Shown piece after piece: positions 11,142-57,700 of a DNA stretch of 64,000 bases. Origin of the DNA: Moniliella sp. 'wahieum' (Eukaryota); assembly GCA_003971905.1 (NCBI GenBank), contig RSEE01000048.1:372001-436000 (forward strand). The letters run 5' to 3'. Made by a program: the position numbers and the translations under genes. The notes under the pieces were generated by a model. The model was not told where the DNA came from and searched no databases. It saw only the letters and a list, made by a program, of their open reading frames with translations. How positions within the stretch are numbered: the first letter of the stretch is position 1; every line of letters begins with the position of its first letter.

Positions 11142-11707
11142 AGCCTCGGCCGATTGCACCACGAAACATGCACTGCTAGCAGTAAGACAATCAACGAATC
11201 TCAACACAGCGGAAACGCACCACCACGTTTGCTCAGTATACGAGAGGACCGAGAAGAATATACCCACTGATCTCGGCCCTTGAAGCTTGGCTTGTTTCCC
11301 GGTACTGGGCTACGCGGATGAGCTCGACGACGCAGCTGGTTCTTTGGTCGAGATCACACAGCCACACAAAACACGGTGCGCAGCACGTCCATCAAAGATC
11401 GGGGGGGCAGTCCGTCAATGTCATCAACAATCGCTTTTTTTATAGTGGCGACGAGCTGTGTTGCACACCCATCACACCACGTTCCCCCATCTTAAGTTGC
11501 GACGTTCAACGTCTGGATGTCCTGCGCGCACGCGACAATGTCTCTATCTCCATCTCTATTTCCATAGTATGACAGCCCCACTATGCATATGAGTAGTAGG
11601 GGCCAAAAGGGTGTGTAGGATCATTTTCGTATGGGTAGTTGTACACAGAACAGAGCCAGCAGAGAAGGGGCAGCCGCGATGGGCTGGGTGGACACAAGTC
11701 AAGTGAC

Positions 11708-13849
<2,142 letters not shown>

Positions 13850-13912
13850 TGCAGACGCAGAAGGCAGGCAGTCGTTGGTGGGATGGAGGCCGCTCGAGCC
13901 GGCTGGGACGCA

Positions 13913-14143
13913 GCTTATATACGTGCTTGACGCCGCGTCCGGCTGCTGGCACGGGCAGCCACGTGGGTACTGCCCCAGTGCCTACCGCTTCGCGGCGGCG
14001 GCGCCACACTGGCCTTCTGCCGGCCTCCACGCTTCTTCCAGCACGCTCCGAGACATACGAGCCACGTCGCACCCACTGCGCTCGTGCCGGAAGAAGACGG
14101 CCGAAAGGCGACACGTGGCGCGGCCTGTCTGCTTCCACGTGGC
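13913..14143 (-). promoter_or_regulatory. BiP promoter: TATA box plus four CCACGT/ACGTGG UPRE-like motifs
   Basis: TATATAAG (minus strand, about 13913-13920); GCCACGTGG 13958, GCCACGTC 14061, GACACGTGGC 14110, TCCACGTGGC 14134. These resemble Hac1/XBP1/Cib1-type UPR elements. Confidence 0.6.
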
Positions 14144-17181: not shown

Positions 17182-17277
17182 GATTGCGTGGTGAAAAGGT
17201 ATCACGACAGATTGTGGCGACACGATCATAAAGCTTCGCAAGCTCTGTTATTCTCAGTTCGATTCTGGGCGCAGTCA
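17182..17277 (+). tRNA. tRNA-His(GUG) with 25-nt intron (17218-17242)
   Basis: GATTGCG/CGCAGTC acceptor stem, GTGA/TCAC D-stem, ACAGA/TCTGT anticodon stem, loop TT-GTG-G, T-arm CTCAG-TTCGATT-CTGGG, downstream T-run terminator. Confidence 0.92.
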
Positions 17278-17745
17278 CTTCTTTTTTCGTTTTTGCCTCG
17301 TGTCCTCCTCCACTCTTGATCCACGCACGAAACAGATGCGTCACAGCATGTGCCTACCATACCCACCTGCCCATTCCACTAGCTAGCTTTTGCGGCATCA
17401 GCCCATCCGTAATGGGCGTTGCCATCAGGCGTATTGCAAGTGCATTAATGATGCCGTTTCGTGAGAGGAAGCAGAAGTATCGACAGAGGTAAACGCGCGA
17501 TCCACGTAGAGCCGTCTATGCTCTCCCGTTGAGACTGACCAGTGTCGAGGCAGAGAAAAAAGGGGGGATCCACAGCTACATGGTCGCACTAAAGGCAGAG
17601 GGCAACAGGCAGGCAGAACAAAGGACAAACAACTACACATGGAAGGAATCATGCACACTATAGATTGAAATAAGAGTAGGGACTTGGTGCAGCAATCTAT
17701 GCATACCAACCAAGCTCCGGAGGACAAGACGACCCCAGCTAACCC

Positions 17746-18772: not shown

Positions 18773-19744
18773 GGCGGGCGGACGGGCAGATAGGCGGAGG
18801 GGAGGCGGGAGGGGGAGGGGACGGGCGAGAAGACGAGGCGGGCGGAAGGCGTGCTATTATAGGCTGCGGGGGGCCGGTGGATCGGCGTGGAGGGCCAGGG
18901 CGGCCCAGGGCGGGCGGGCTGGCTGCCGCGCCGACGGCCCAGGCGGGCGGGCTGGGCAGAGCGTGAGAGAGCCGCGGGAGACGGGCGGGGAGGGAGGCTG
19001 AGTGGCGCGGGCGCTGGGCCGGGCAGCTGCCTGTCGGGCCCGGCCGGGGGCGAGTGTCCGCGCGCGGGGTGGGGTTGCCGGCGGCCCGTGCCCGGGACAC
19101 ACACTGGCCCCGTGCGGCGCCCGGGCGCACCAGCCGGAGAAGATGCGGAGACGGCAGGCGGCCAGCTGCGTTCAGCGGCGGTTCCGGCCCAGCCGGGCTT
19201 GGTGAACCCGAAGCCGACGCAGCCACGACGCAGGGATGGAGCGTGATCGGAATGATCGGGATGGCCAGTGCTTGGATGATCGAGATCTGATGCGGACGGC
19301 TGGATGATTGTGCATTGATTATTCACCCACTGCCGACTCACCAGACGCAGACGCTCCTCTGTGCTCGCGCCGGGGTGGGTGTGGCTTGGGCGGACATGGC
19401 TCTGTTACGTCATGCGTGAGGGGCGTGGGTGCGGGGTGGGCAGGGTGCCACGCATGCACCAGAAGAACCCCGCAGCAGACTCCTTGAGTAAGTGAGTACT
19501 TGTATTCCCGTATTCCACACCGAGATTCAGCATTCAGCGCTCAGCAAACACGGTGGCCATCTACGCTCTAAGATCTAATGCCACACGTCAATTTGAGCTG
19601 CTGCCCCATCATGCATCACCCGTCACGGATGGCATTCAATCTCCATCCTCGTCTGCGCGTCATCTCGGCTGATCAACGCCGCAGCCGGCGCCTCCACAGC
19701 GCACCCCGTGCGCCTTTTGGTCGTGCATCCTGCCTCTCCTCCCC

Positions 19745-22577
19745 TCACGCGTTCAACGCCGTCGTCCCCGTCGTGCCAGCCGCCGCAGCCGACTTGGCTA
19801 CCCCCTTGGCCGTTGTCCCGCCCAGCACCATGTTCTGCAGCTGTTTCGCGTCGAGGCCATGTGCGTGGCGCTGGTCTGCCGCCTGCTCCTCCGATTCCGC
19901 CGCGGCCGCCTGGGCGCTGCCGTTGCCGCTGCCACCCGCATCGGGCAGCGCCGAGTCCTGCGCCTTGTGAGCCGGCTGCTGGAACGCATGGTTGCCCGGC
20001 GCCGGTCCCACGGGCGCTGCGCTGGTGGTGACCTTGGGCACCAGCGGGAGCGAGGGAAGAGGCGGCATGTGTCGGTCCACCGACGGCTCTGCGGTGCGGA
20101 CGATCGGAGGCCAATGGCTGTACTCGCTGGTCGAGGCGGGGAAGTTGATGCAGTCCAAGTCCCAGGTCGAGCGCAGGCGGGCGGCCATGCACTTGGATTC
20201 TGTCCACTCCCCCGCCGACACGAGCGGGCTGAGGCGCCAGTAGGCCAGCAGCGCCAGCACGGCCAGGCCCGCGGTCAGTTGCACGCGCGCCCGAGGCCGC
20301 AGCCGGACCGTGAGCGTGTCCAGCACGGCGGCGAAGGTGAGGATGCCAAAGTAGAGTGCTGGCAGATAATGGTGGAGGAAAAGTTGACGGTGCATGGCAA
20401 AAAAGGGGAGGTAATGCAGGCCATAGCCAGCTACGAAAAAGGCCAGCAGACCATCGTAGTGCGCCCCAAGCGTATGGGTATGTTGCAGCTCCTTGTACCC
20501 GCGCTTGGCCCGCAGCACCAACAAGATTCGCACCGCCACATACAACCCAACCGACGCCAGCGCCGAAAGCCAGACCAACGGATTGCCCAGCAGGTACACT
20601 TGCCGATGCTGCTGGGACCAATAGTTGACCCCGCGCCGGAGAAAGGGCCACTGGTGCGGGCGCGAGTCGTAGGCGTGCCGAGCGGTGAGGCCGGCATTGG
20701 TCGTCCACATCACTTTTTGAAGCTCGACAAACTTGGCCCAAAAGCAAGGCCGCGCGTAGTTGACTTTTTGCGCGTCAGCGTCCTGCTCGAGCAAGGGATG
20801 CACGTTGGTCTCAATGTAAAACAGCGTATTGGGCCGGGTGGGCTCGCGGTTGCAAGTCACCTCTTGCTGGCCAAACCCCCAGTCGGGCAGATGGACAGCG
20901 TGACTAAACAGGTAGCATCCCAATGCCGAGTGACGCAGACGGAACACGGTGCGCAGGGCGAGCAGCTCGTGCTGCGCCGCCCCGCGCCTCGATTCGGCCC
21001 GGTCAATCTCCACAATCCAATTGTCGTTGGCATCGCCGGTAAAGCCGGGGGAGCCATAGGCCGAGACCTCGTTTTGGTACTCCGCCTCGGTGATGGGCGG
21101 ACGAAGGTTATGCGAATGGAGACGCGTGTCGGACGTACGATGCACCAGACGTATTTGCGCCTTGTCCTTGACCCACTCCAGCTGGGCCAGGTGCTTGTCC
21201 ACGTCGCGAGGCGAGCCAGGAGGAAGCGTGATGGGAACGCCGTTGGCGTCGACCATCGGTGCGCCCTCCTGCGACGGCACAGCAACAATCTCCCACACAT
21301 TGTTGTCATCCTCGTGCGGGTAGAGGGTGACCTGCTGCTGCTTGGAGCCGGTTTGGTAGTTGAACGCGTGCGAGTGGAGGTATCCGCCTCGCGTATGGAT
21401 GTGGCGGATGGTTACCGCGCTGCCCAGCGCGACCTGGGCGTACGTGTCGTGCATTTCCCGACCGTGCAGCGTGCGTTGGAACGCAGGGGACATGAAACCG
21501 TCTCCTCCGCCCGAGTGGCTAAGGATGGCAAAGTGGATCCAGAACGTCGATGCATACACGGTCAGAGGCACAACGATCAGCGCACCAACGCGCGCAACAA
21601 AGTGCCGCCCGAGGTCCCAGAGGGAGGTGCGCTGGTCCGCCAGGCGCAACCAAAGTTGCACGATTGTCGCCACCCCGACTGTAGCCACGGTGAAGAGCCC
21701 GACCCACTTGACACTCAAGACCAGGCCAAGGGAAGCGCCGACGGCGAGCAGCCACGCCCACCAAACGCGGCTAAAGGGACGACGGGCGTCCTCCTTGCCA
21801 AAGCAAACCCAGCACAGCGCCGTGGTCGCAGTAAAGAGCACCAGCGGGGCGTCGAGAAGAATATAGTGACTCTGCGTCGCCAACGCATTGTCAAGCAACA
21901 CGAAACAGGCGCCGACCAACGCGGACCCCGTCCGCACCCCGCCCGCACGCAGCGTGACAAACGCCACGGGCACCAAGAGCGCGCCACACAACGCCGACAC
22001 GCGCCGCATGCCCACATACGGCACAGGCTGCCCAGGCAACTCGCCCACAATGTACTCGTTGCCAATGCCGCCAAAGTTAAACTTACCGTCGTACCCCCCA
22101 CGTACGCCGCGAGCGTGATCAAGAGCTTGGCCAGGGGCGGTGCACGTCCATAAAAAATTCGCGCCGCAGGTACTTGCCGGCAAAATTGCCAAAATGGACC
22201 TCATCAATCTGGGTGCAGCTGGCGGTCAGCCGTATGGGCATGGGCATGGGCATGGGCATAGGTATGGGCATGGGAATGGGAATGGGCATTGCGTTGGCAG
22301 ATGGGACAGGGGGGGACGTACACGACGCTGCTGGGGCGGTCGAGGTGAGAGAAGCGGAGCCAGGCAGCGAGAAGGGTGAGGAGAGCGACAAGACGCCATT
22401 CGACAGGCGCCAGCGCCGTTCCCAATGCGGCAGACCAGGGTACAGACGGGTAGGCTCGAGCCACTCCAGGCAGAGAAGTAGAGCCGGCAGTGTGGCTGGC
22501 AGGCGGATAGGCTACTGGCTTGGCCGACGCGGCTGGGGAAGGCGCGGGCAGACCGGCGTTGATGACAGCGTCGCCAT
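19745..22577 (-). CDS. PMT1: Dolichyl-phosphate-mannose protein O-mannosyltransferase, Pmt1 subfamily (intron about 22209-22321)
   Basis: PSSVV|(F)DEVHFGNFAGKYLRREFFMDVH(P)PLAKLL, ILLDAPL, SVKWVGLFT, GDGFMSPAFQ, MIR domains (YLHSH, QQQVTLYPHED), WGFGQQEVTC, RQLFLHHYLPALYF. Confidence 0.93.
22234..22288. repeat. Intronic hexamer microsatellite (ATGGGC)n
   Basis: atgggc/ataggt/atggga variants, about 9 units, inside the PMT1 intron. Confidence 0.85.
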
Positions 22578-25432: not shown

Positions 25433-25704
25433 AGTTGCCCCGTCTTGCTCGGTGCCGGCGGTTCGTGCGAAACCCAAAGCAAGCGGCCCGGATCGTCCAG
25501 CTGCCCCTTGCCACTCTTGCCACCGCCCATTGCTGGTGAGCTGTGCCGCCCAACTGTTCCTTGTTGCTTTTCTGAGAACAACGTCATCTGGAGCAACGTG
25601 TGTGTGGCTGTGGCTGTGTGGGTGTTTGTCTGTGAGCGTACGCGCTGGTAGTGTACTCTCCTGCCATTCTGCCTATCATCATCTCCACGCCCACCTCTGC
25701 CGCG

Positions 25705-28700
25705 ATGGCCTCAGGCTCCCAAGGCCTCTGCTTAGATCCCCCTCCTTTCCAGTCGCCCCTTCCTCCTCCCGACCCACTTGCACCCCCTGCGCTCCATCCC
25801 GGATGGGTGCTCACCTCTGCCCCATCGCCCATCGCTGGAGGTCACCCCCTCCGGTACGCCGTCTTTGCCCGCCCCATGGAGCAGCCGCCCCATGGTCGTG
25901 AATACCGCCGCATTCGCCTCGCTAATGGGCTCGAGGCACTCCTGATCCGCGACGTCCAGTCTGTCCATGCTGGCGCCGCCTTGAGTGTTGGCGTCGGAAG
26001 TCTGTGTGACCCAGACGAGTTGCCGGGCTTGGCTCATCTCTGTGAGCACCTCCTCTTCCTTGGCACCGAAAAGTACCCCAACCAGCACGAGTACACTGGC
26101 TTTCTTTCCCAACACGGCGGCGACTCGAATGCCTTTACAAAGATGGATGAGACCGTATTCTATTTCGCCTTGGTCGCGATCATCTCGAGGGTGCTCTGGA
26201 CCGTTTCGCCCAATTCTTCATTGCCCCGCGTTTCGACAGCGATTGCACTGAACGAGAAGTTCGGGCTGTTGACAACGAATTTAAGAACAACGTTCGTGTA
26301 TGTTTTGCCCCCTGTGCTTCCCTTGGCCTCGTCCTGATGTATTGTTTCGTCCGCTCACTATTCCTTGTCCTCCCAGTTGGATGCCCATCGTGAGTTCCAT
26401 CTGATCCGCAGCCTCGCCAGTCCACATCACCCGCTTCATCGCTTTCTTTCGGGGAACCTGGAATCGCTATGGACCACGCCACGCAAACAGGGCATCAATG
26501 TGCGCGACGAACTACTCCGCTTCCATGAGCGCTACTATAGCTCCAACCTAATGAAGCTCGCTGTCGTGGCGCCCGATCATTTGGACACTATGACTGAGAT
26601 GGTCGTCTCCCAATTCTCTGCTGTTCCCAACAAATTTGTTCCTCGTCCCAGTTTTGGCCCCGATCCGATTGATGCCAGTGGGCTTGGAACGGTGGTGAAC
26701 TACCGGCCAATAGGAAAGCTGATCAATCTTCGTCTTATCATCTCCATATCCTATCTCAAGCCTCACTGGCGTAGCCAGCCTGGCCCTTTCTCACTCACTT
26801 TTTCGGTCACGAAGGTCCCGGATCCATCCTCGCCTACCTTCGCCGACAAGGTTGGAGCAACTTGTTAACCGCCGCTATTTTTGGCGGGGCTGTGGGCTTT
26901 GACTTTCTCCAAATCAGTATGCTCCTCACTCCCCAAGGGTTGATCCATTGGGGCGAGGTAGTAGCCGCGGTATTTGATTATGCCGACTTGTTGCGCACAT
27001 TCGTCGAGCACAATGGCGGCACGTTCCCCCAATGGGTGTTTGACGAACAAAAACAACTGAGCGAACTCAGTTTCACTACCAGCACGCGTCTTGGCGCTGC
27101 CTTCACCGCCATGCAACGCGCCACTTCTTTGCATGATGATCTCCCCCCGAATGGACCTTAGCCGACTTAAAGTACCGAGAGATGAACCCCCCCCTGCTCT
27201 GTTCCTTGCTGGACCAAATCCGCCCCTGGCGAGCTCGCGCTTTTCTTGCCGTACCTGCGCCCCTCTCTGAACCGACCACTGGACCGAGCCCGTTGCCGCC
27301 ACCGACGGAACGGGAGAAATGGTATGGCACCGAGTACTCCGTTTCGCCCTTCCCTTCGTGGATTGCAGATGTACATCGTCCACGTACCCCCGGACTTGCT
27401 TTACCCGGACCCAATCGGTTCATCCCCCACACTCTGCGCTCAGTTGCCCCCAAGACGCGTTTCTCTGACACGTCCTCCCCGCTCCTCTTGTCCCATTCCC
27501 CGTCTTCGGCTCTGGTACCAACCCGACCTGCACACCACCGAGCCCAAGGCGAACCTGTGGCTGCGATTCAAGTATTCCCAACCCCCATCACCCCGTACGA
27601 GAAGATGGTGGTGCGCATGTACTTGGGAACGATGCAAATGGCCCTGTCCGAGTCTGTGTACGACGCACAACTGGTCGGTCTTCGAATATTTCCTTTACCT
27701 GGCAACGGATGCGCGGAGATTGTTGTGACGGGGTGTTACAGCGACACGTTGGGATCCACTCTCCGTAGCCTTCTCGAGCACATCAAGACGTTCACCCCAA
27801 CCAAGCGGCTTTGGATAGTGTGATGCACCAGCTTCGCACGGCATGGTCTGCCTTTGAGGCGAGAGAACCATATGTGCTCTTGGGTAACTATTTTACTTGG
27901 TTCTTCCAAGACGATTCATGGCTTCCTCCTCAGCTTCTACAGTCATTGGAGCAGCTGGATGCGATGGATGTGGTGCGGTTTCGGGATGAATGCTTCTGCG
28001 CGGACGTCGGTGGACCTCTACGTGAATGGGAATTGCGATGAAGAGGTTGTGCTGGCGATGCAAGACATGGTGACTGAGATCTTGCCCCCGCGCAGCCAAT
28101 CCTTGATGGACACCGATCCCTCACCTGGACCGTACAGCCTCCTGCTCGACCCGCACACCGACACCCTCCTCCGCTTCCTGGCGAGCGACGCGAATCAGCC
28201 CAACTCGGCTATCCTCTGGTACGTCCAGATGGGCGATGTGGCCCGGACCGACGTGGTTATGCACGCTGCGCTAGAGTTGCTGGTCACCATTGCTCAGCAA
28301 CCGCTGTTTGATGAGCTGCGCACCAACCAGCAACTGGGCTATCACCTTGCCGTGTCCTCCTGTGTGCACGCCAACAGTCTCGGCTTGGCCATCAAACTGC
28401 AATCGGAGTACACGGTGCGTGGGCTGCGCAAACGAATCGAGCACTTTCTGCGGGACCAGCTTGCCTCGCTCCTGGACACCATGTCGTCCGAATCCTTTGT
28501 CGCCCGCCGCTCCGCTCTGGCCGAGCAAACGGTCGCAGCCGACACGCTGACTGCCGAACCCCAACTGCTCGCGGTGCGCGATACCATCTCGACCAACACA
28601 TTTGATTTCCACCACGGCCGCCGCCTGGCCCAGGCCATCCAAGCCACCTCCTTGGCCGACCTGCAGCGCCTGTTTGCCACCCACGTCCACCCCGACAGCC

Positions 28701-29005
28701 CGCACCGATCCAAGTTGATCATCGAGATCGAATCGGCTCACGCTAAGCCCCTCCGCGGCCGGCCCCCGCGGGGCACCAGCAGCCCCGCTAGTCCAGCCAC
28801 GTCTGGTGCGACACTGGGCGTAGGCGCTGGCCAAGCCAGACCTAGCGCGCCAGGGCACAGTGCTGTCCCCCTGACGCCCCTTCCGCAAACCACGGTCCAC
28901 TCGCTGGCTGAAGCACAGGCGCTGCGCAGCCGCCTCCGTCGATCCTCCCCTGCTCGGCCGGTGCAGCCGTGGGCCCAGTACACTCCCTCTCCTGCATTGG
29001 TATAA
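25705..29005 (+). CDS. STE23: Insulysin/pitrilysin-family (M16A) zinc metalloprotease, Ste23-like (intron 26298-26376)
   Basis: [47 protein letters not shown] (HxxEH), [50 protein letters not shown]. Confidence 0.88.
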
Positions 29006-38286: not shown

Positions 38287-41200
38287 TTAGGGCGGAGCAG
38301 GCTCTGGCTCCAACTCTTCGCCCAGCAGCCACCCTACGCCGCGCGTCAGACTAAACCCGCCGTGGGGCACATGGAATGGGATCCGCCCGGCCTCGCGCCG
38401 CGGCCCCGCCTCGTCTCCAGAGTGCAACACCGACCGCACCTGTTCTGGAGCGGTAGGAGGAATGGTAGTGGAGGAGGAGACCGTGCTGGCCCTCGGCATA
38501 GCAGGTGCAAGCGAGGCAGCACCCGCGTCTTGGCCCTGGGCCAGTGCGGCGTTGGAAGCGGGACCGGCGCCTGGATCGTGGCTCGGGCCGCGGAAGAAGA
38601 ACCGAGCGGCGCGGGCCGCATCGTGGCCCCCCTTTTCCGATAACGCGGCCAGCTGCTGGCCCACCAGCCCGCCCAGCCCACTTGCCGTCTCGCGTAACCC
38701 GCCCGGCCGCGGCGCAGGCAAGGGGACCGAGAGCCCACGGAGGAAGCTGCTACCGCGTTCGGCCGGAGGCGCCTCGGGCGGCATGGCCTCCAGCCCCCAC
38801 GCCTCCTCCTCGGCGGTCGCGTCAGCGGGCGTATCGGCGGCGGCCGGCGGCGTAGCGGCGTGCGGCGTGCCAGCAAAGGCCGGACTCAGCTTGCCCGCAC
38901 TGACCAGCAGGGCAGCCAAGGGCGTTGCCGCGGCCGCGGCCGACGCATACTCGCCCACCACTGCTGGCACGCCGAGGCCAGCGAGCAAGCCTTCGCCCGT
39001 CGGTGCGGCGGCGCTGCCGGCGCAAACAGCATGCCCGCGCGCTCGTCGGCATCCAGGGACATGATGGCTTGGTCCCACACCCCGCGCCAGGCACGCAGCA
39101 AGCGCGCCACCTGCTCCTCAGGGCAGAGGCTCAGTGCTTGTCCCAACAGACCCAGCTGCGCCAAAGGTTCTTCCCAGGCCGCTTGCTTGCCCAGCTGATA
39201 TGCCACCTTCCACGCCACCTCCTGCGCAGGCAGCAGCATCCCCCGTGCACTCTCCTCCGTCACACAAGACGTGCCAGCCGACCTGGCTTGGGCCGCGCGC
39301 GCACGTTGTTGTAAGCCGTGCACCACCTTCAGCACCCGTTCTGCCAACCCGGCGGCCCGGGTCCAGTCGGCCGCGGCCATCGCCGCCTCGGCCAGCATGG
39401 CCAACACCTGCGCCTCAATCACCGGTTTGCCCACCTTGCTTCCGCTCGGTTCCGGTAGAAGAGCAAAGAGAAGGCGTCTGCTGTCGCACTTGCTTGCTCT
39501 GGCCCCAGCTGCGGCGCACGGTTGAGTTGCACTGCCAGGCCAACCAGGGCGTCCGACGCTTTGTATGCATCAGCTTGATGTGCCACCACTCGTGCCACCA
39601 GCTCGACGCACCCAGCCACACAGTTCGCCCCCGCGGGTGTTCGGCCACCGCGCGAATCTCCGCGGGCCGTATCAAGCCAGGGTGCTCGGACGAAGGCAGA
39701 CGATACGCGCCCAACTTACTCGTTGCCACCAGGAACGCCTTTTCCGCCGTCAAGGTCGGCGTGGCGGGCAGCACGTCCAATCTGATACAGTGCAGTGTGC
39801 GTTAGTACCCTCTCACCTTCCCCCCCACGCAACGAACTAGAGACAACAGCAATGCAACCCAGCACGTACATTTCATCCGCCAGCTTCATTGCGCCACTGG
39901 TCAAGTGGTGGAGGTGGCGTCGTCGTAGCTACTGCGCGCCGCAGCGAGCACCACCGCTTCGATCTGGGTAGAAGTGAGGGCCGGGCAGTACGACGCTGGC
40001 GAGGCCAGTAGCGATCCAAACAGGTACAGCCCGCCCGACCGCAGGAGGCCCAGAAGGGCTACCTGGTACACTTCGGTCCGCGTCAGGGGCGCAAACAGAT
40101 GAGGTTCGGGTTGGGATTCGGGATCAAGTTCGGGAGGTGGGGCGATAGACTGTTCGTGGCCCCAGGGGTCCTCTCGTCCTCCGCAGCAGCCGTAGGGACA
40201 TCCAACAGCGCGCTCAACAAGCTCCGCCACGCGCTTTCCTGCGCTTGCTCTGAGCGGGCAAAGCTCCCGGTGACCAACGCATATAGGTGCTGGAATTGGA
40301 CTTGGCGCGTCGAGGCGGTCAGGTACCATGCGAGGGGCATGTGCGACGCGTCCCACGCCTGCAACACCCGCAGCGCAGCCAAGTGCGAGCCCAACGTGGC
40401 GAGTGCCGAGGCGGAAGGAAGGGGGTGGGGGTGGGGACGGGGGCGGGGGCGTGGGTACGGAGGTGGGCAAACAGGCTCTGTGCATCGGGCAAGACAGGTG
40501 GATTAGGCAACCGAGGCGAGACGCCCAAACTCTCTAGAGCCAACTGGACTTGTTCCACTGACGGCGAGGGGAGGCCAGCGGGGCCCGCTGCTGCGACACA
40601 GCGTGCTCGACCATCGCCACCGCCGCCGGGTCCGAGCGCGGGGACGTGTAGGCACATGCGAGCACAACGAGGGGTAACGCGCCTTCCAGCGGCTCTGCAA
40701 GCGACGGACACGCCAACAGTGCCCACAGAAGCGAGAAGGCGTCTTCAGCTGGGAGCGTCGGCCCAACAGGAGGTGCAGCCGCGTCGGAGCGCCGAGCCCA
40801 GCGGGCAAGGGTGAAAAGGATGCCGATCAACGTGGCCCGCACCGCTGGTGCGGTGGGGGCCGGGGGGCGCGAGGCCAGCAGCGTCGCCCGCTCTGCCAGC
40901 TGGCCCAACAGAGGGACCAAAACAGTGACCAGAAAGGAGTCCAAGGGTGGCGGAACGGCCTGAAGCAGCTCCATCACCATGTCGGTCGACCGGATGCGGC
41001 GTCCCTGGCAAGCGCCAGCTCCAGCTCAGGCAGCGTTGTTGGCCCGACTCCAGGACCGACCGGGGCCAAGCTGAGGACATGGAGAATGGCAAACGATTTG
41101 CTCAGTAGAGCCAGGCCGTGGGCCGCTTGGCCCGCCGAGGCGAGACTATGCGGGCCGCGGGGAGCAACGTGGGCACTGACCGCGGCCAACACGGCGGCTG

Positions 41201-41991
41201 GCACGTGCTCCTTGTCCAGTTCGCGCAGCGTGCGGGCGTACCAAGCATAGAGCGCATTGGCCGGCAAAGCCGATGTCGCAGCATCGGTAGGAGGGCCGAG
41301 CACGGCGCTGGCCGCCTCGGGCTCGTCGGCCGGGTCAGCCACAGGCGGAGGGCCGGGAGGCGTGGCGGTCCATGCGCTGGTTTCCCGCTGGTCGGGGCCT
41401 GGGACGGGCAGGAGATCGGCGTGGATGGCGGCCGCAATGGCCTCCGCCGTGCCGGCGGTCTGGATCAGGAGCTGGAGCAGGCGGAAGCGGTGGGCGGCGA
41501 GGACGGGGCCAAGGTGGGGGGTGGTGCAAGAGTGCGGCAAGGGCGGGATAGTTGTGGGGGGGCTCGAGAAGGCCAGCCGCTGCGTCGGGAAGAGCCGGCC
41601 GAAGTAGCAGCGAGAGGGGAATGTCCTCGGCCGGGGCCCCAGCCGCCTGCGGCGGCGCAACCGCGTCCAGACGGCGTGCATAGCTGAGGAGCAGTGCACG
41701 GGCGCGCAGGCGTGGGTCGCTGGCCGTGGCGGACGCCGAGGCAGTGGCGGGGAGCGCGTGCTGGACAAGTTCAGCGACCCAGTGGGCATACGCAAGTGGA
41801 TACGCCGTTCTCGCACCGGGTGCGGTGAGCTGGTGCAGGAGGGAGAGGATGGCGCGCAGCTCCCAGGCGGCGTCGTCGATGGCAGTGAGGGTGGCGAGCG
41901 CGTGCTGGCGGGCCTCAGCCGAGACGGGCGCCTGCGCCACCTCCTGGATCCAGGAGTGCTTCAGCGCAGCGTCCTCCTCGTCGCTCCGCAT
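38287..41991 (-). CDS. SEC39: Dsl1-complex subunit Sec39/NBAS-like (intron 39782-39869)
   Basis: ALLGLLRSG, IEAVVLAAARSSYDDATS..GAMKLADE, FLVATSKLGAY, PAEIR, VLAMLAEAAMAAADW, WKVAYQLGK, LLGQALSLCP..LLRAWR. Many frameshifts. Confidence 0.75.
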
Positions 41992-42138
41992 CGTGTCGTT
42001 GCCACGGACGGAGGGAGGATGGGGAGGAGGCCGTTGCAGGTGGCCAAGCGCCGCAGCGGCCGACCGACGTGGCGCTGCCCGCCCTCTCCAGGGAGATCAG
42101 CAGGTGTGTACTGGCCAAAGTCCCCATGCACAGCATAA

Positions 42139-42233
42139 GGCATCGTGGTGTAGTTGGTTTATCACGTATCCTTAACACTGGTCCTCTGCCTTGTTAACGG
42201 ATAAGGTCCCCGGTTCGAGCCCGGGCGAAGTCA
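42139..42233 (+). tRNA. tRNA-Val(AAC) with 20-nt intron (42178-42197)
   Basis: Exons identical to the copy at 37960-38053; different intron; T6 terminator. Confidence 0.95.
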
Positions 42234-52125: not shown

Positions 52126-55100
52126 TCAGTCGGCAACGTTTCCGTTGGCGACGCGTTGCCTTCGCTGTGGCCGGCGTAGGGAGGCAGAGAGGCGCGACGT
52201 AGGGAAGGCAGAAAGGTGCGGCGGACGTCTCCCGCCACAGGCAATCCGGATGGCCTCAATTGTGAACTGGACCATCATCGCTGTCCGAAACTTGTAGTCC
52301 TCCACTTGGGTCGAGGAACAGAACGAGCGGGGGAAGCGATGCGCGAGCCACAGGTACAACATGCATGTCCGATGCAGCGATTCGAGCTTGCTCAGGGTAT
52401 CGACATGTACTTTGGGTGCGGTCCGGTCGACAAAGGCGGCTGCGTCCCGACGACGTGCGTACGCCAACGCCGACGACTCGCTCATTGCCTCTCCCGCTGC
52501 CTTTGACCCATCTGGGTTATCCGAAGCAGACGCCTGCCAATTAGGAGGTAGATCGATCAGGGGGTTGACCGGTTGCTGCTCCAGCGCGATAAATGGAATC
52601 TGGCCGGCGCCTTTGGCAAGCGCCTCGGCTTCCAACTGCTCCATCCGCAGCAGTGTCGGTATCATGCCGCTCGCCTCGATCGCCTGGTCAAACAGGACGG
52701 GTGAGCCCTGGATAAAGTAACGGGCAAAAGCCTCAAAGGCATCCCTCACCCGCGGATCCCGCATGTTCGCAGGCGCATCCGAGAAGAGGAGCTGTTGCTC
52801 AATCGTCAAATGCTCACCCGAATCCAATTGGACAGGTTTCTCGGCATCGGCGGCCTCGAGTCCATCTTTGGCCTGCTCCAAAGTGCTTTGCACATTGTTC
52901 GTGTCCGATGAACGAGCCCTTGCGACCTTCTCAAACACTTCTAGCACATTGAGTTGGTCAGGAGCGTTGGATTGGAAAAAGAGGTCCTCGTCGATCTGAA
53001 CCAACATCTGAGCATCGCGTCGTAGGGCCAGAAGCGACCGTCTGCCCCGTTGGCAGACGAGGGCTCCGCGTCGGTAGGCGAGGGCTCCTCGTTGGGAGGC
53101 GAGGGCCCCGTTGGTAGGCGAGGGCTCCCCGTTGGTAGGCGAGGGCCCCGTTGGTAGGCGAGGGCTCCCGTTGGTAGGCGAGGGCTCACCGTTGGTAGGC
53201 GAGGGCTCACCGTTGGTAGGCGAGGGCTCACCGTTGGTAGGCGAGGGCTCATCGTCCACAGCACCAGTCTCAATCGTCAGATCCGTTGTCTCTTGATCAG
53301 CACTTGCATCGGGATTAGGGAGAGAATCAGCCAATCTGGCTAGGTCGACCGCAGCCGTTGATGGGACCATGAAGGCGGCTCGGGGAATGGGTTGGGAAGG
53401 CGCCTGGAGCGCCTTGACCAGCACGGCGAGGTCTTTGGGTTGCATGGTGGTAACGTTGCCCTGCAAGCCGCCAGTGGGGCCTTCGTACCCGCCTGCCTGC
53501 TCGGCAATTTGCCTGATCTGCGTGCTGGTCATGTTTTGAACGCCGAGTTGGTCGTCGTACTTGGTCAGTCGATGGAACACAACCCGGTTGATTTTCCTGG
53601 TCCAGAGGCAAAGTCAGCTTGATGAGAAGTCCAAATCGCAAGAGTAGGGAAAGGTCAAACGTACAGGCCCAATCCATGTTCCAGTCCAGCGTCCTGGCTG
53701 GCCACCATCACATGGTAGCCGGAAGTATGATCGTTGAACAAACGGACCTGCTCAGCGAGCGTCTCGGGGGGTAGCCCATCATACACAACGGCACACATCA
53801 ACCCAGTGTGTTGTTCCACTATGCGTTTGACATCAAACACCCGGTCGCGGGAAGAAGTGACGAGGCAGTCTCCCCTTCGAACCCGACCAAAATCATTGCC
53901 AAAAGACATGGACTGCACTTCCATCGGTATCTTACGGTGGTACTGATGGATGTGCACCGTGTCTCCAGTGGCTTTGGCAATCTCCTCGATCAGCGGAATG
54001 GCGCTTTGATCGCCACATAGATGAAGCTCCTTGGCGGGCACACCCAACAACGCATTGGTCCACGCATGGCCACGCTTCGGGTCCAAGATCATCTGGATCT
54101 CATCAATCACCGCCACCTCCACCGGCACTTCCGGCACCACCTCCCACCGTGCACGAGGTGAAGGTGGCCGAGTCCTCGAACACGCGTTCCTCGTCGGCGG
54201 TAAGTAAGTTGCACTTCCGCGTTTGCTCCCCTAGCTTTGGTTGGGTAGAATTGATGCGGTGCCAAATCTCGTGTGCGCGTAGGCGGAGCGGACTGACGTA
54301 CAACCCAGTCTCGGCATCCATGAGGCACTTCAGGGCATGGTCTGTTCGGCCACTGTTGCCTGCGCCGACGTGAAGGTGAATCTGACGGGTCATACCGTGC
54401 GTGATGGGAAAACGGTTCATAGGTGTGCGGTAGTCCAGCGCCTGGACAAGATTCCGGATCCGCTCTGCTTCCGTGATTGCTGGCTCAACGATTTGGAAAG
54501 TGAGCACCGGGCTTTGGCTAGGTGTCACCAACGCCTTCTCTACAAAGTTGAGAAACATATTGGTGAGCAGTCGGCCAATCACTTTGACATCCGGTTCTAG
54601 CGCCAACGTTGTCCGTAGTTTCTCGAGCGGCCATCCTTTCTGCTCGAGTTCTTCGAGGAAAGTAGGGTGCCAGAGAGCATACCGTATTTCAGCCCGCATC
54701 CTGTTGGACCAAAGTTCAAGCAAGGGCCCGAGAGCGGGATGAGCGGGGTGGGGTGGGGTGAGGGGTAATCTTGAGGTGGGAAATAACGAGGCGTGCAATT
54801 TCGTCCGTCACACCATTCGCGGCGAGCAAGTCGAGGATGTAGGGGTTCTTGCTAAAGTCGGGCAGATGATTGCCAATCCTGAGAACAATCTGTTTTGGCG
54901 ACAGCAGCTCCACAGGACCAAATTCGGGAGGAGCGGGTGCATTGTCATCGCAATCCTGGAGGCGAGGTTGATTAGGCAACGAGGAGCTGGCGCGCAGGGT
55001 GGTGATGGCATCTGACAAGAATGAGGTGAAGTAGGGGCCGGGGCTAACTGGGGAAGAGTTGGTGCTGGAAGTGACATTGGGGGGGTCACTACTAAGAGGT

Positions 55101-56275
55101 TTGGCGTTGCCCTTGGATTCTTGGGAGCCCGATTTCGCGCCTGGACCTGCTTTTGCACTGTTCTTTGATTTGGGTGACACGGGGGGAACGGGGTGGGCAC
55201 TGCCGCTAGCTTTTTCGGAGCCCGTTAGGTCCTCCTTTGCACCCTGCTTTGATTTGGGCGGCACTGGGGGAACGGGGTTGGCACTGCCGCTAGCTTCGTC
55301 GGAGACCGTCAGGTCCTCCTTTGCCCTGCATTGATTTGGGCGACACTGGGGGGACAGGATTGACGTTACCGCTAGCTTCTTCGGAGCCCGTTTGTGCGCA
55401 AGGGACCTGATTTGTACCCCGCTTTGGATTGGTGGGGACAGCGGGAACGGGGCTAGCGCTGCCGTTGGATTCGACCGAGGCCGATTTAGGGGCGGGTCCG
55501 TGTTAGGTGTTGGCTTTGGCTTTGGCTTTGGCTTCGGACTGGCTTTGGTTTTGGTTTGGCCGGCTGAGGGGGAATGGGCTTAGCACTTTCGCTGGATTTG
55601 TCCGAGGTAGACGGGACACTGGTCTCCTCTTGTACGTCCTGTTTGGGTTGTTTTGGGTTGGGGGACTTGGCAGGAGCGGGGCTGAGATTGGGGTCGGACT
55701 CAGCTTGACCTGCGAGCTTGAGGGGGGAGCTTGCCCTGTGGGGTGCCGTCATTGGGGCTGGAACTGGAGGGACCGGCATTGGCGCCAGCTTCGCTGTCGG
55801 GGGCCTTTGGCTTTGGCTTGATTTGGCTTTGGTTTGGCCGGCTGAGGGGGCATGGGTTTAGCACTTTCTCCGGATTTGTCCGAGGTAGACGGGACACTGG
55901 TCTCCTCTTGCACGTCCTGTTTGGGTTGCTTTGGTTTGGGGGACTTGGCAGGAGCGGGGCTGAGATTGGGGTCGGACTTAGCTTTGGCTGTGGGCTTGTG
56001 GGGGAGGGGTTGCCCTGGGGATGCTGTCATTGGGGCTGGGACTGGAGGGACCGGCATTGGTGCCAGCTTCGCTGTCGGGGGCTCGCGCTGCGTTGGGGGA
56101 TGGATGGTGGAGGGGGTGGAAGGGATTGTGGGGGCCGCAGGCGCGTGGCTGCCGGTAGATGGCGTGCCCGGGGGGCGGCGGAGGCGGAGGTGGAGACCAG
56201 CGCATGGCGGACGAGCAGACGGCGGCTGGCCAGCACACGCGCCGGCTGAATGCGCGCCAGGGAGGCGACGAGCAT
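52126..56275 (-). CDS. Mitochondrial SUV3-family helicase homologue with degenerate ATPase motifs (intron about 53602-53664)
   Basis: Arg-rich presequence MLVASLARIQPARVLASRR; RQIHLHVG, PLRL.AHE, CNLLT, AVIDEIQMI.D..RGHAWTNALLG, ELHLCG, GDCLV, LPPET, LESLH...LYLWLAHRFP. Confidence 0.88.
53049..53250. repeat. 21-nt coding minisatellite, about 10 units (EPSPTNG) in SUV3-like gene
   Basis: gttggtaggcgagggctcacc and variants in tandem. Confidence 0.9.
55164..55465. repeat. About 84-nt coding tandem repeat, 3-4 units
   Basis: tttgatttgggNgNcacNgggggaacgggg..gcactgccgctagctt.. recurring at 55164, 55248, 55331 and degenerate near 55423. Confidence 0.85.
55510..56080. repeat. About 279-nt coding tandem duplication (2 units)
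   Basis: ggtctcctct.. anchors at 55621 and 55899; both units encode PKQPKQDVQEETSVPSTSDKS. Confidence 0.9.
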
Positions 56276-56709: not shown

Positions 56710-57700
56710 ATCTGCTACCGTCGTGGCCACCACCCAGAGCGGCATCCAGGTCCTCCATGCGGATGTGATCCAGTGTCGCCCAAAGGTAAGGGTTGTTGCG
56801 ACCATGGGCGCGCTTCGTGCTGTGGGCCCTTGAGCTTGTGGTCCAGCGCAACCTGGACGAAAACGACAGACCAATGGTTTCGGTCTTTGTCGCCCCCTCC
56901 TAGTTTGCCCCTAAGGAAGACGTAGCCGCCTATCCGCATATCTTACCTGTCGATTCCGCCGCCGCTTTGGCCTCCATTTTCTTCTCTGCCCCCCTTGGGA
57001 GCCAGGATGGCCCAACTCTTCAGACCAGTCCCCGGCTTTGCCGCGCCGCGTGCCTCGCATTTTTTCCCAGGTGTGTGAGATGTACCGCCATGGGTTTACT
57101 CATTGGGGTCGCCGATCAGGCGAGTCCTTTCCTTCAGGCCGAGGGTTTGAGCAAGCAAATGGGGGGCACATACCGCCCCGCCTTCTTCCGCGGTGTAGCC
57201 ACGCTTGTCACCCAGCTCTTTCACTTTATCCCGATCATACTTACTCTGGTCAAAGGACATTCAATCAGTCTTATTCTCCGTCGTCTTGTGTCCGATCTTC
57301 AGTTCTCCTATACGCTCCTTCGGGCGACCATGGGGTCATCAGGCCAATCGATCGCGATCCCAAACCTTCGCTTGCCCTCATCAGCCACAACACGTGTCTC
57401 TCGCCCAAGGTGCGTGCGCCCGTATCACCCCTCTCTCTCACGTCTTGTTCGGCGACTCGGAGGCATAGGAAACGTCGTATGAAACGATCCGATTGATACA
57501 AGTGCTCGATGCCACTCTTTCCACTTTGGCAGTCGAGATTCGTCGAGTTCCCCAAAATAAAGTGTACCTCGCACATAACTACCATTAACGGCCCTCACAC
57601 TGTAGACCCTAGAACGCACCCTCCCGTGTCATCTTCTCGGGCACGATCAACATTGCGGATGCATTGCCTGATGGTCAACCTGCTGCCAAGCCGACCCGGC
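56710..57700 (+). pseudogene. PAN6: Pantoate-beta-alanine ligase (pantothenate synthetase) pseudogene
   Basis: VVATMGALR..GP, ENDRPMVSVFVAPS*FAPKED..YP (TAG 56901-56903), GLSKQMGGTYRPAFFRGVATLVTQLF, PDHTYSGQ, RDP..LALISHNTCLS. HxGH and SSRN motifs eroded. Confidence 0.85.

Follow-up and report, generated by a model that had tools for sequence, protein, structure and literature searches.

Canonical fungal Suv3 proteins, such as those of Candida glabrata (PDB 6F4A), Saccharomyces cerevisiae (SUV3) and Ustilago maydis (UMAG_04997), share a single order of parts – presequence, N-terminal domain, DEXQ-type RecA1, RecA2 and C-terminal domains – and have GKT in the Walker A motif and GRAGR in motif VI. 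In superfamily 2 (SF2) helicases the Walker A lysine and the motif VI arginines are required for ATP hydrolysis, and the yeast ATPase-dead mutant K245A, described by Guo et al. in 2011, is said to fail both in RNA decay and in the maintenance of mitochondrial DNA. Helicase folds with degenerate ATPase motifs are known elsewhere, for example in the C-terminal cassette of Brr2 and in Utp25, and these inactive proteins are conserved across many species and have known partners. In the yeast mitochondrial degradosome there is, according to PMC5758563, a tight coupling between the ATPase activity of Suv3 and the nuclease Dss1, and human SUPV3L1 is described in the abstracts of PMC9044407 and PMC13261141 as acting as a dimer with PNPase. 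Here we describe a SUV3 homologue in a 64-kb stretch of DNA from Moniliella sp. 'wahieum' (contig RSEE01000048.1, positions 372,001 to 436,000, assembly GCA_003971905.1). The whole of this stretch is called the window, and all coordinates are given in its numbering. The homologue lies on the minus strand between 56275 and 52126, as delimited by stop-to-stop frames and a reading of the DNA; it follows the canonical order of parts and differs in residues on which ATP hydrolysis depends. We give about even chances to its being a maintained, ATPase-dead SUV3, that is, a gene still translated and selected, with a core under much weaker constraint and a product unable to hydrolyse ATP.

The locus is a member of the SUV3/SUPV3L1 family. 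Two open reading frame (ORF) pieces match the Pfam family DEXQc_Suv3 (PF22527) with 78.3 bits (profile positions 1–85) and 86.9 bits (positions 93–154) against a cut-off of 27, and the C-terminal domains Suv3_C_1 (PF18147; 28.2 bits, cut-off 22.5) and SUV3_C (PF12513; 45.5 bits, cut-off 27) are both recognized; Helicase_C (PF00271), which is annotated on RecA2 of the homologues, gave no match at E≤0.1 on the SUV3 pieces, in which RecA2 was scored in intron-split parts. The top PDB matches are the Suv3 of mtEXO (6F4A) and human SUPV3L1, the latter with E values of 1e-32 for the piece running from DEIQ to motif V and 1e-10 for the Walker A piece; the human helicase core (PDB 3RC3/3RC8, 7W1R and 9VC8) is homologous, but its motifs are canonical. 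In a maximum likelihood (ML) tree of 31 rows the homologue groups inside the Ustilaginomycotina Suv3 clade, where its sister is P0001 (SH-aLRT 91), in a clade that includes P0002 and is supported at 100. P0001 is the N-terminal part, and P0121 a C-terminal fragment, of the SUV3 of the closest relative, both taken from Logan contigs. Identity to this relative is 60–64% in the core and 56% over the C-terminal 272 residues, across which the last exon is colinear with P0121.

The departures from the canonical motifs (Table 1) were evaluated in an alignment of 120 homologues with a conceptual protein made from the window pieces joined by their coordinates, with X at two breaks. First, the Walker A column is lysine in at least 95% of the 120 homologues and arginine in the window protein, where it is encoded by CGA (54348–54346), a codon two changes away from AAA. 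Second, the core of motif VI reads QIAEQAGG as against QIAGRAGR with its two arginines, so that GRAGR has become EQAGG. Third, motif V is altered and contains an insertion. Fourth, the canonical TGEE/TGDE and YGGLPPE are represented by CNLLTADE and AVVYDGLPPE. DEIQ, RGxAWT, HLCG and LPPE are kept. Each of the altered readings had been given in a preliminary description made from the DNA letters alone, and all are present as read there, at the coordinates it gave; the consensus motifs to which it compared them agree with the 95% consensus of the 120 homologues. With the Walker A lysine and both motif VI arginines lost, what is known of SF2 helicases leads us to expect a protein that would be ATPase-dead. 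Relative to canonical fungal Suv3, the window protein has also grown, in its N-terminus by 278-bp and 84-bp repeats and in its C-terminal half by a 21-bp repeat. The model of P0001 continues at the same position after motif V, which suggests that the intron site found there is common to the two genes. The presequence was judged by eye only.

Table 1. Features of the SUV3 homologue and of the adjoining PAN6 relic, listed in the direction of SUV3 transcription, with PAN6 last.
Feature	Coordinates	Strand	Details
Putative start codon ATG	56273..56275	-	Opens an Arg-rich presequence-like ORF (MLVASLARIQPARVLASRRLL...); stop at 56029–56027 in the same frame
Tandem repeat, 278-bp unit	55527..56082	-	Two copies, 90% matches; Pro/Lys/Ser-rich peptide, same relative frame
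Tandem repeat, 84-bp unit	55152..55392	-	2.9 copies; unit ...ASGSANPVPPVPPKSKQG...; spacing of copies 1 and 2 is 82 nucleotides (2 short), of copies 2 and 3 84 nucleotides
Frame break in C-rich run	54742..54757	-	Four CCCC runs; between N-terminal-domain blocks, flanked by P0001 residues 224 and 232
Walker A / motif I, degenerate	54343..54372	-	HVGAGNSGRT; consensus HVGPTNSGKT (P>A, T>G, K>R)
Frame break, one base, in GGG run	54144	-	Inside SCTV/E(M/V), with the break at the stroke; RecA1, between motifs Ib and II; tblastn and PDB alignments
Motif II (DEIQ), intact	54093..54104	-	VIDEIQM
Motif V, degenerate	53665..53705	-	VASQDAGLEHGLGL; consensus VASDAIGMGLNL; two residues inserted
Spliceosomal intron, 68 nucleotides	53597..53664	-	GTACGT donor, CTGAC branch site (53617–53613), CAG acceptor
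Last exon	52126..53596	-	495 codons open in the stop-to-stop frame; motif VI, Suv3_C_1, SUV3_C (about 52270–52395); stop codon 52126–52128
Motif VI, degenerate	53485..53520	-	QIRQIAEQAGGY; consensus KQIAGRAGRY (K>R, G>E, R>Q, R>G)
Tandem repeat, 21-bp unit	53045..53250	-	10 copies (EPSPTNG), in the last exon
PAN6 (pantoate-beta-alanine ligase) relic	56904..57479	+	Divergent to SUV3; profile positions 61–167 of 268 detectable, 35 bits

The changes at conserved positions are numerous and concern this gene in particular. The SUV3 homologue deviates at 20 of the 86 alignment columns with a conservation of at least 95%, and at 16 of the 64 with at least 98%, whereas for the other aligned sequences the median number of changes over the same 86 columns is 0 and the highest 9. 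The replacements are R>H before Walker A, P>A, T>G and K>R in motif I, L>R in motif Ia, G>A in motif Ib, M>V, L>K, L>M, F>S in the motif IV region, G>D in YGGLPPE, D>Q, M>L and N>G in motif V, K>R, G>E, R>Q and R>G in motif VI, and two in the C-terminal domain. Unlike the window gene, P0001 has every canonical motif and a branch five-fold shorter: the end branches in the ML tree are 1.04 for the window protein and 0.20 for P0001, and three-taxon counts give 82 residues unique to the window protein against 21 unique to P0001 (chi-square 36.1, p 2e-9). Counted by domain with P0002 as outgroup, the unique residues number 21 versus 14 in the N-terminal domain, 31 versus 4 in RecA1 and 30 versus 3 in RecA2.

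A control is provided by the PMT1-type protein O-mannosyltransferase (PMT) gene of the window (19748–22225, minus strand), which is intact over 826 codons and whose best relative, P0122, is 66% identical. Here the end branches are 0.31 and 0.24, and the counts of unique residues with three outgroups are 45 versus 47, 54 versus 49 and 42 versus 49. Since PMT has no such asymmetry, the excess change in SUV3 is gene-specific, and judged by these comparisons (in which P0001, P0121 and P0122 are not necessarily from one organism) the acceleration belongs to SUV3 and not to the lineage as a whole. The lineage itself is a deep and poorly sampled one within the smut-related basidiomycetes. The strand opposite PMT contains an equally long open frame (19673–22150), so that GC-rich antisense frames in this DNA have few stops.

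The preliminary description took the presequence, DEIQ motif, intron and C-terminal domain of the SUV3 gene to be intact. The DEIQ motif, intron signals and C-terminal domains are indeed in place, and there is no premature stop in 908 alignable codons, but the assembled ORF is not continuous. A tblastn search with P0001 gives colinear matches in three frames, with residues 163–224, 232–430 and 431–591 falling on 54943–54758, 54741–54145 and 54143–53658, respectively. There is no room for an intron at either of the two breaks between them (54742–54757 and 54144), and at the latter the PDB alignments adjoin, ending at chain residue 228 and resuming at 235. At least three further frame changes are required in the repeat-rich N-terminal region to pass from the presequence ORF to the frame of the N-terminal domain, with break sites at about 55310, 55500, 55805 and 56170.

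Breaks of a similar kind are present in other genes of the window. The BiP/KAR2-type HSP70 gene (about 11700–13990, minus strand), in which there is one clear GT-AG intron at about 13497–13389, has at least eight frame switches, and yet its invariant motifs are intact; the ORF pieces of this gene, in different frames, share stretches of DNA but adjoin on the HSP70 profile (1–18, 15–63, 82–119, 120–183, 185–210, 209–253, 248–365, 382–461, 458–543 and 548–599), and a reading of the DNA indicates that at most of the breaks a short homopolymer run has changed its length by a single base. An M16 (insulinase/Ste23-like) peptidase gene (25636–29002, plus strand) has at least four switches of the same kind, with HxxEH intact. 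Indels without substitutions in genes that look essential point to assembly error rather than decay, and the BiP switches are most likely of this nature. Because BiP and M16 carry like breaks and keep their motifs, the SUV3 breaks, too, are probably assembly indel errors; and since their density in SUV3 is no higher than in BiP or M16, they are weak evidence for a pseudogene. The same two genes bear on the idea that the odd motifs themselves are base-call errors of a poor assembly. The assembly does have clear indel problems, but BiP and M16 have kept invariant motifs through many of them, so substitution errors must be rare, and 82 unique SUV3 residues, many of them needing one or two specific base changes, would have to be accounted for; we consider this explanation highly improbable.

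A more serious alternative is that the locus is a recently dead or dying SUV3 pseudogene, relaxed perhaps because another copy or another helicase took over its function, with frameshifts that are real and with frames still open because little time has passed. We hold this to be possible, somewhat short of an even chance. Several observations oppose it. First, when the 908 in-frame codons were mutated at random until 15–20% of the residues were replaced, a mean of 4.1–7.5 stops arose and the probability of finding none was 0–0.023 (0.013–0.06 at 10% replacement), so that neutral change sufficient to explain the losses at conserved columns predicts four to seven stops where none is observed. 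Second, the splice signals are intact, and the coding pattern of base composition is as well: GC content at codon positions 1, 2 and 3 of the SUV3 pieces is 0.61–0.66, 0.37–0.49 and 0.64–0.67, like that of other genes in the window, where intergenic GC is 0.51–0.55. This differs from the PAN6 relic next door, in which the three values are flat at 0.60, 0.53 and 0.58. Third, BiP and M16 have perfect motifs with a break density as high or higher, so that a break is no sign of a dead gene in this assembly.

A fourth line of evidence comes from the repeats near the N-terminus. The two copies of the 278-bp unit arose in this lineage. They differ at 10 of 210 well-aligned nucleotides, and by codon position of the only open frame the differences number 1, 0 and 9; the proportions of synonymous (pS) and nonsynonymous (pN) differences are 0.128 (13% synonymous divergence) and 0.023, with pN/pS 0.18 and a Fisher p of 0.008. 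Selection on the encoded protein thus appears to have acted on both copies, each read in one and the same relative frame, and to have lasted about as long as the neutral phase needed for decay. As 278 is not divisible by three, the two copies fall in different frames of the assembly; if both copies were selected, the real gene must read through both. In the 84-bp repeat the variable sites number 5, 4 and 10 by codon position in 22 codons. The units of the 21-bp array in the last exon differ in length by 1–2 nucleotides, such that some stretches are translated in another frame, giving SPRLPTG or ALASQRG, while the conserved flanks stay in one frame. Taken together, the absence of stops and the repeat data are hard to reconcile with a purely neutral pseudogene.

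Nonetheless, a number of observations weigh against a maintained ATPase-dead SUV3, and several of them are what a pseudogene would lead one to expect. First, the assembled ORF is broken at no fewer than five places, one of them inside RecA1, a fact overlooked in the preliminary description, and the lengths duplicated in tandem, 278 bp and 82/84 bp, do not fit whole codons throughout; there are no breaks in PMT (2.5 kb) or in the gene for a mitochondrial carrier (0.9 kb, 295 codons), so that errors are unevenly spread through the window. Second, motifs I, Ia, Ib, IV, V and VI have all lost invariant residues, and the acceleration extends to the C-terminal domain (9 unique residues versus 3 in P0001), a count on which we dropped the idea of a relaxation confined to the helicase core. 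Third, the fraction of columns changed in the window protein is, by conservation bin, 0.49, 0.47, 0.32, 0.08, 0.21 and 0.23, against 0.31, 0.21, 0, 0.03, 0 and 0 in P0001, so that the added change appears roughly uniform, at about 0.2 over conserved and variable columns, and resembles general relaxation. Fourth, the replacements are more radical, with a mean BLOSUM62 score of -0.20 as compared with +0.76 and +0.59 in relatives. Fifth, the residues N187, E190, K197 and R199 of C. glabrata Suv3 are named as the main Dss1 contacts in PMC5758563, and the equivalents of two of these four, E190 and K197, differ from P0001, with the adjacent conserved arginine (the R196 equivalent) being histidine. 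The relaxation is accordingly broad and extends beyond the ATP-binding residues, which favours decay and speaks against a scaffold whose binding to Dss1 was neatly preserved. Sixth, the adjoining PAN6 is a true relic. Finally, the sign of selection in the repeats comes from 10 differences, a small sample to which CpG effects may contribute. The broad relaxation and the assembled breaks are hard to reconcile with a cleanly maintained scaffold. The preliminary description proposed a maintained, ATPase-dead paralogue that might serve as an RNA-binding scaffold or as partner of an active Suv3. That the protein would be ATPase-dead follows from the lost lysine and arginines; that it is maintained has moderate support from the open codons, the pN/pS of the repeats, the splice signals, the coding GC and the gene-specific excess of change, and is weakened by the five or more frame breaks and the breadth of the relaxation.

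It is also conceivable that the protein still works as a helicase by way of an unusual active site, or that it is the organism's only SUV3 and keeps its canonical role. The retention of DEIQ, RGxAWT, HLCG and LPPE would fit such an enzyme, but the Walker A lysine and both motif VI arginines, residues that SF2 helicases need for hydrolysis, are gone, and motif V carries its insertion. Also in its favour, the tree fits plain orthology to P0001 as well as it fits paralogy, and a single Suv3 (UMAG_04997) is listed for U. maydis in PMC12511879. Against this, mutations by which Suv3 loses its ATPase activity affect the exonuclease activity of mtEXO, as stated in PMC5758563, and we regard an active enzyme as improbable. 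A different form of the single-copy idea is that this is the organism's only SUV3, a positional and phylogenetic orthologue of P0001, kept by selection without its ATPase residues; the mitochondrial RNA degradosome of this basidiomycete lineage would then function without its usual motor or with another helicase (for example one of the Mss116 type), and the SUV3 shell would serve as a structural subunit. We think this unlikely, if less so than an active enzyme.

Should the gene be a maintained one, its product would be a novel form of a known helicase family. No conserved inactive clade of SUV3 was found in the database searches; the sister sequence P0001 is canonical. Neither a closer nor a similarly degenerate SUV3 was found within the limited length and sensitivity of these searches, the best matches being 64% identical in the protein search (restricted to proteins of 336–2000 residues), 56% in a search with the 495-residue last exon and 55% in metagenomes. 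P0121 was the sole match of the last exon, in a search where repeat words crowded the candidates, and the metagenome scan gave 343 relatives, of which 80 were kept; at a top identity of 55% it offers no DNA close enough for a ratio of nonsynonymous to synonymous rates (dN/dS). Literature searches on SUV3 pseudogenes in fungi, judged by title and abstract, and on SUV3 in Ustilago gave no report of an inactive fungal SUV3. The window protein thus resembles the Brr2 cassette and Utp25 in having a helicase fold with degenerate ATPase motifs, but those are conserved in many species, whereas the SUV3 of the window is one sequence with no inactive clade found.

For a maintained, ATPase-dead SUV3, the following arrangement may be proposed. 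The locus would encode a still-translated, mitochondrially targeted pseudo-helicase of the SUV3 family, with two RecA domains that lack the residues for ATP hydrolysis (the Walker A lysine and both motif VI arginines) and with a remodelled motif V. This supposes that the frame breaks are assembly indel errors like those in BiP and M16, and that the protein folds and enters mitochondria. There it might act with no turnover of ATP, for instance as a static subunit that binds RNA or Dss1, either beside a canonical helicase or instead of one.

Some further features of the window can be noted. PAN6, which lies divergently to SUV3, is to judge from its sequence truly degenerate, with its GQKDAQQ region replaced. 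Neither the PAN6 relic (a weak query) nor an RPS21 ORF had a tblastn match in the SUV3 loci of the 80 relatives. A Sec39-domain gene (38290–42096, minus strand) is represented by several overlapping ORFs in different frames and probably contains more frame breaks or introns. ARAGORN predicts two tRNA-like genes on the plus strand (17182–17278 and 42139–42233), each about 95 nucleotides long and possibly intron-containing, of which one has a four-base anticodon and one is a tRNA-Val(AAC); these are unrelated to the SUV3 locus.

A practical lesson is that, unless the reads are checked, a frame break in this assembly is no ground for calling a gene a pseudogene. For the organism, if no other copy of PAN6 is present, external pantothenate would be needed. 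If SUV3 is merely decaying beside the PAN6 relic, then the locus is a record of genes being lost in a smut-related lineage that has been poorly sampled. If it is ATPase-dead and selected, it would be a natural separation-of-function allele, showing which roles of SUV3 are independent of its motor; and if it is also the only copy, it would show that a fungal mitochondrion can manage without a motor-driven SUV3.

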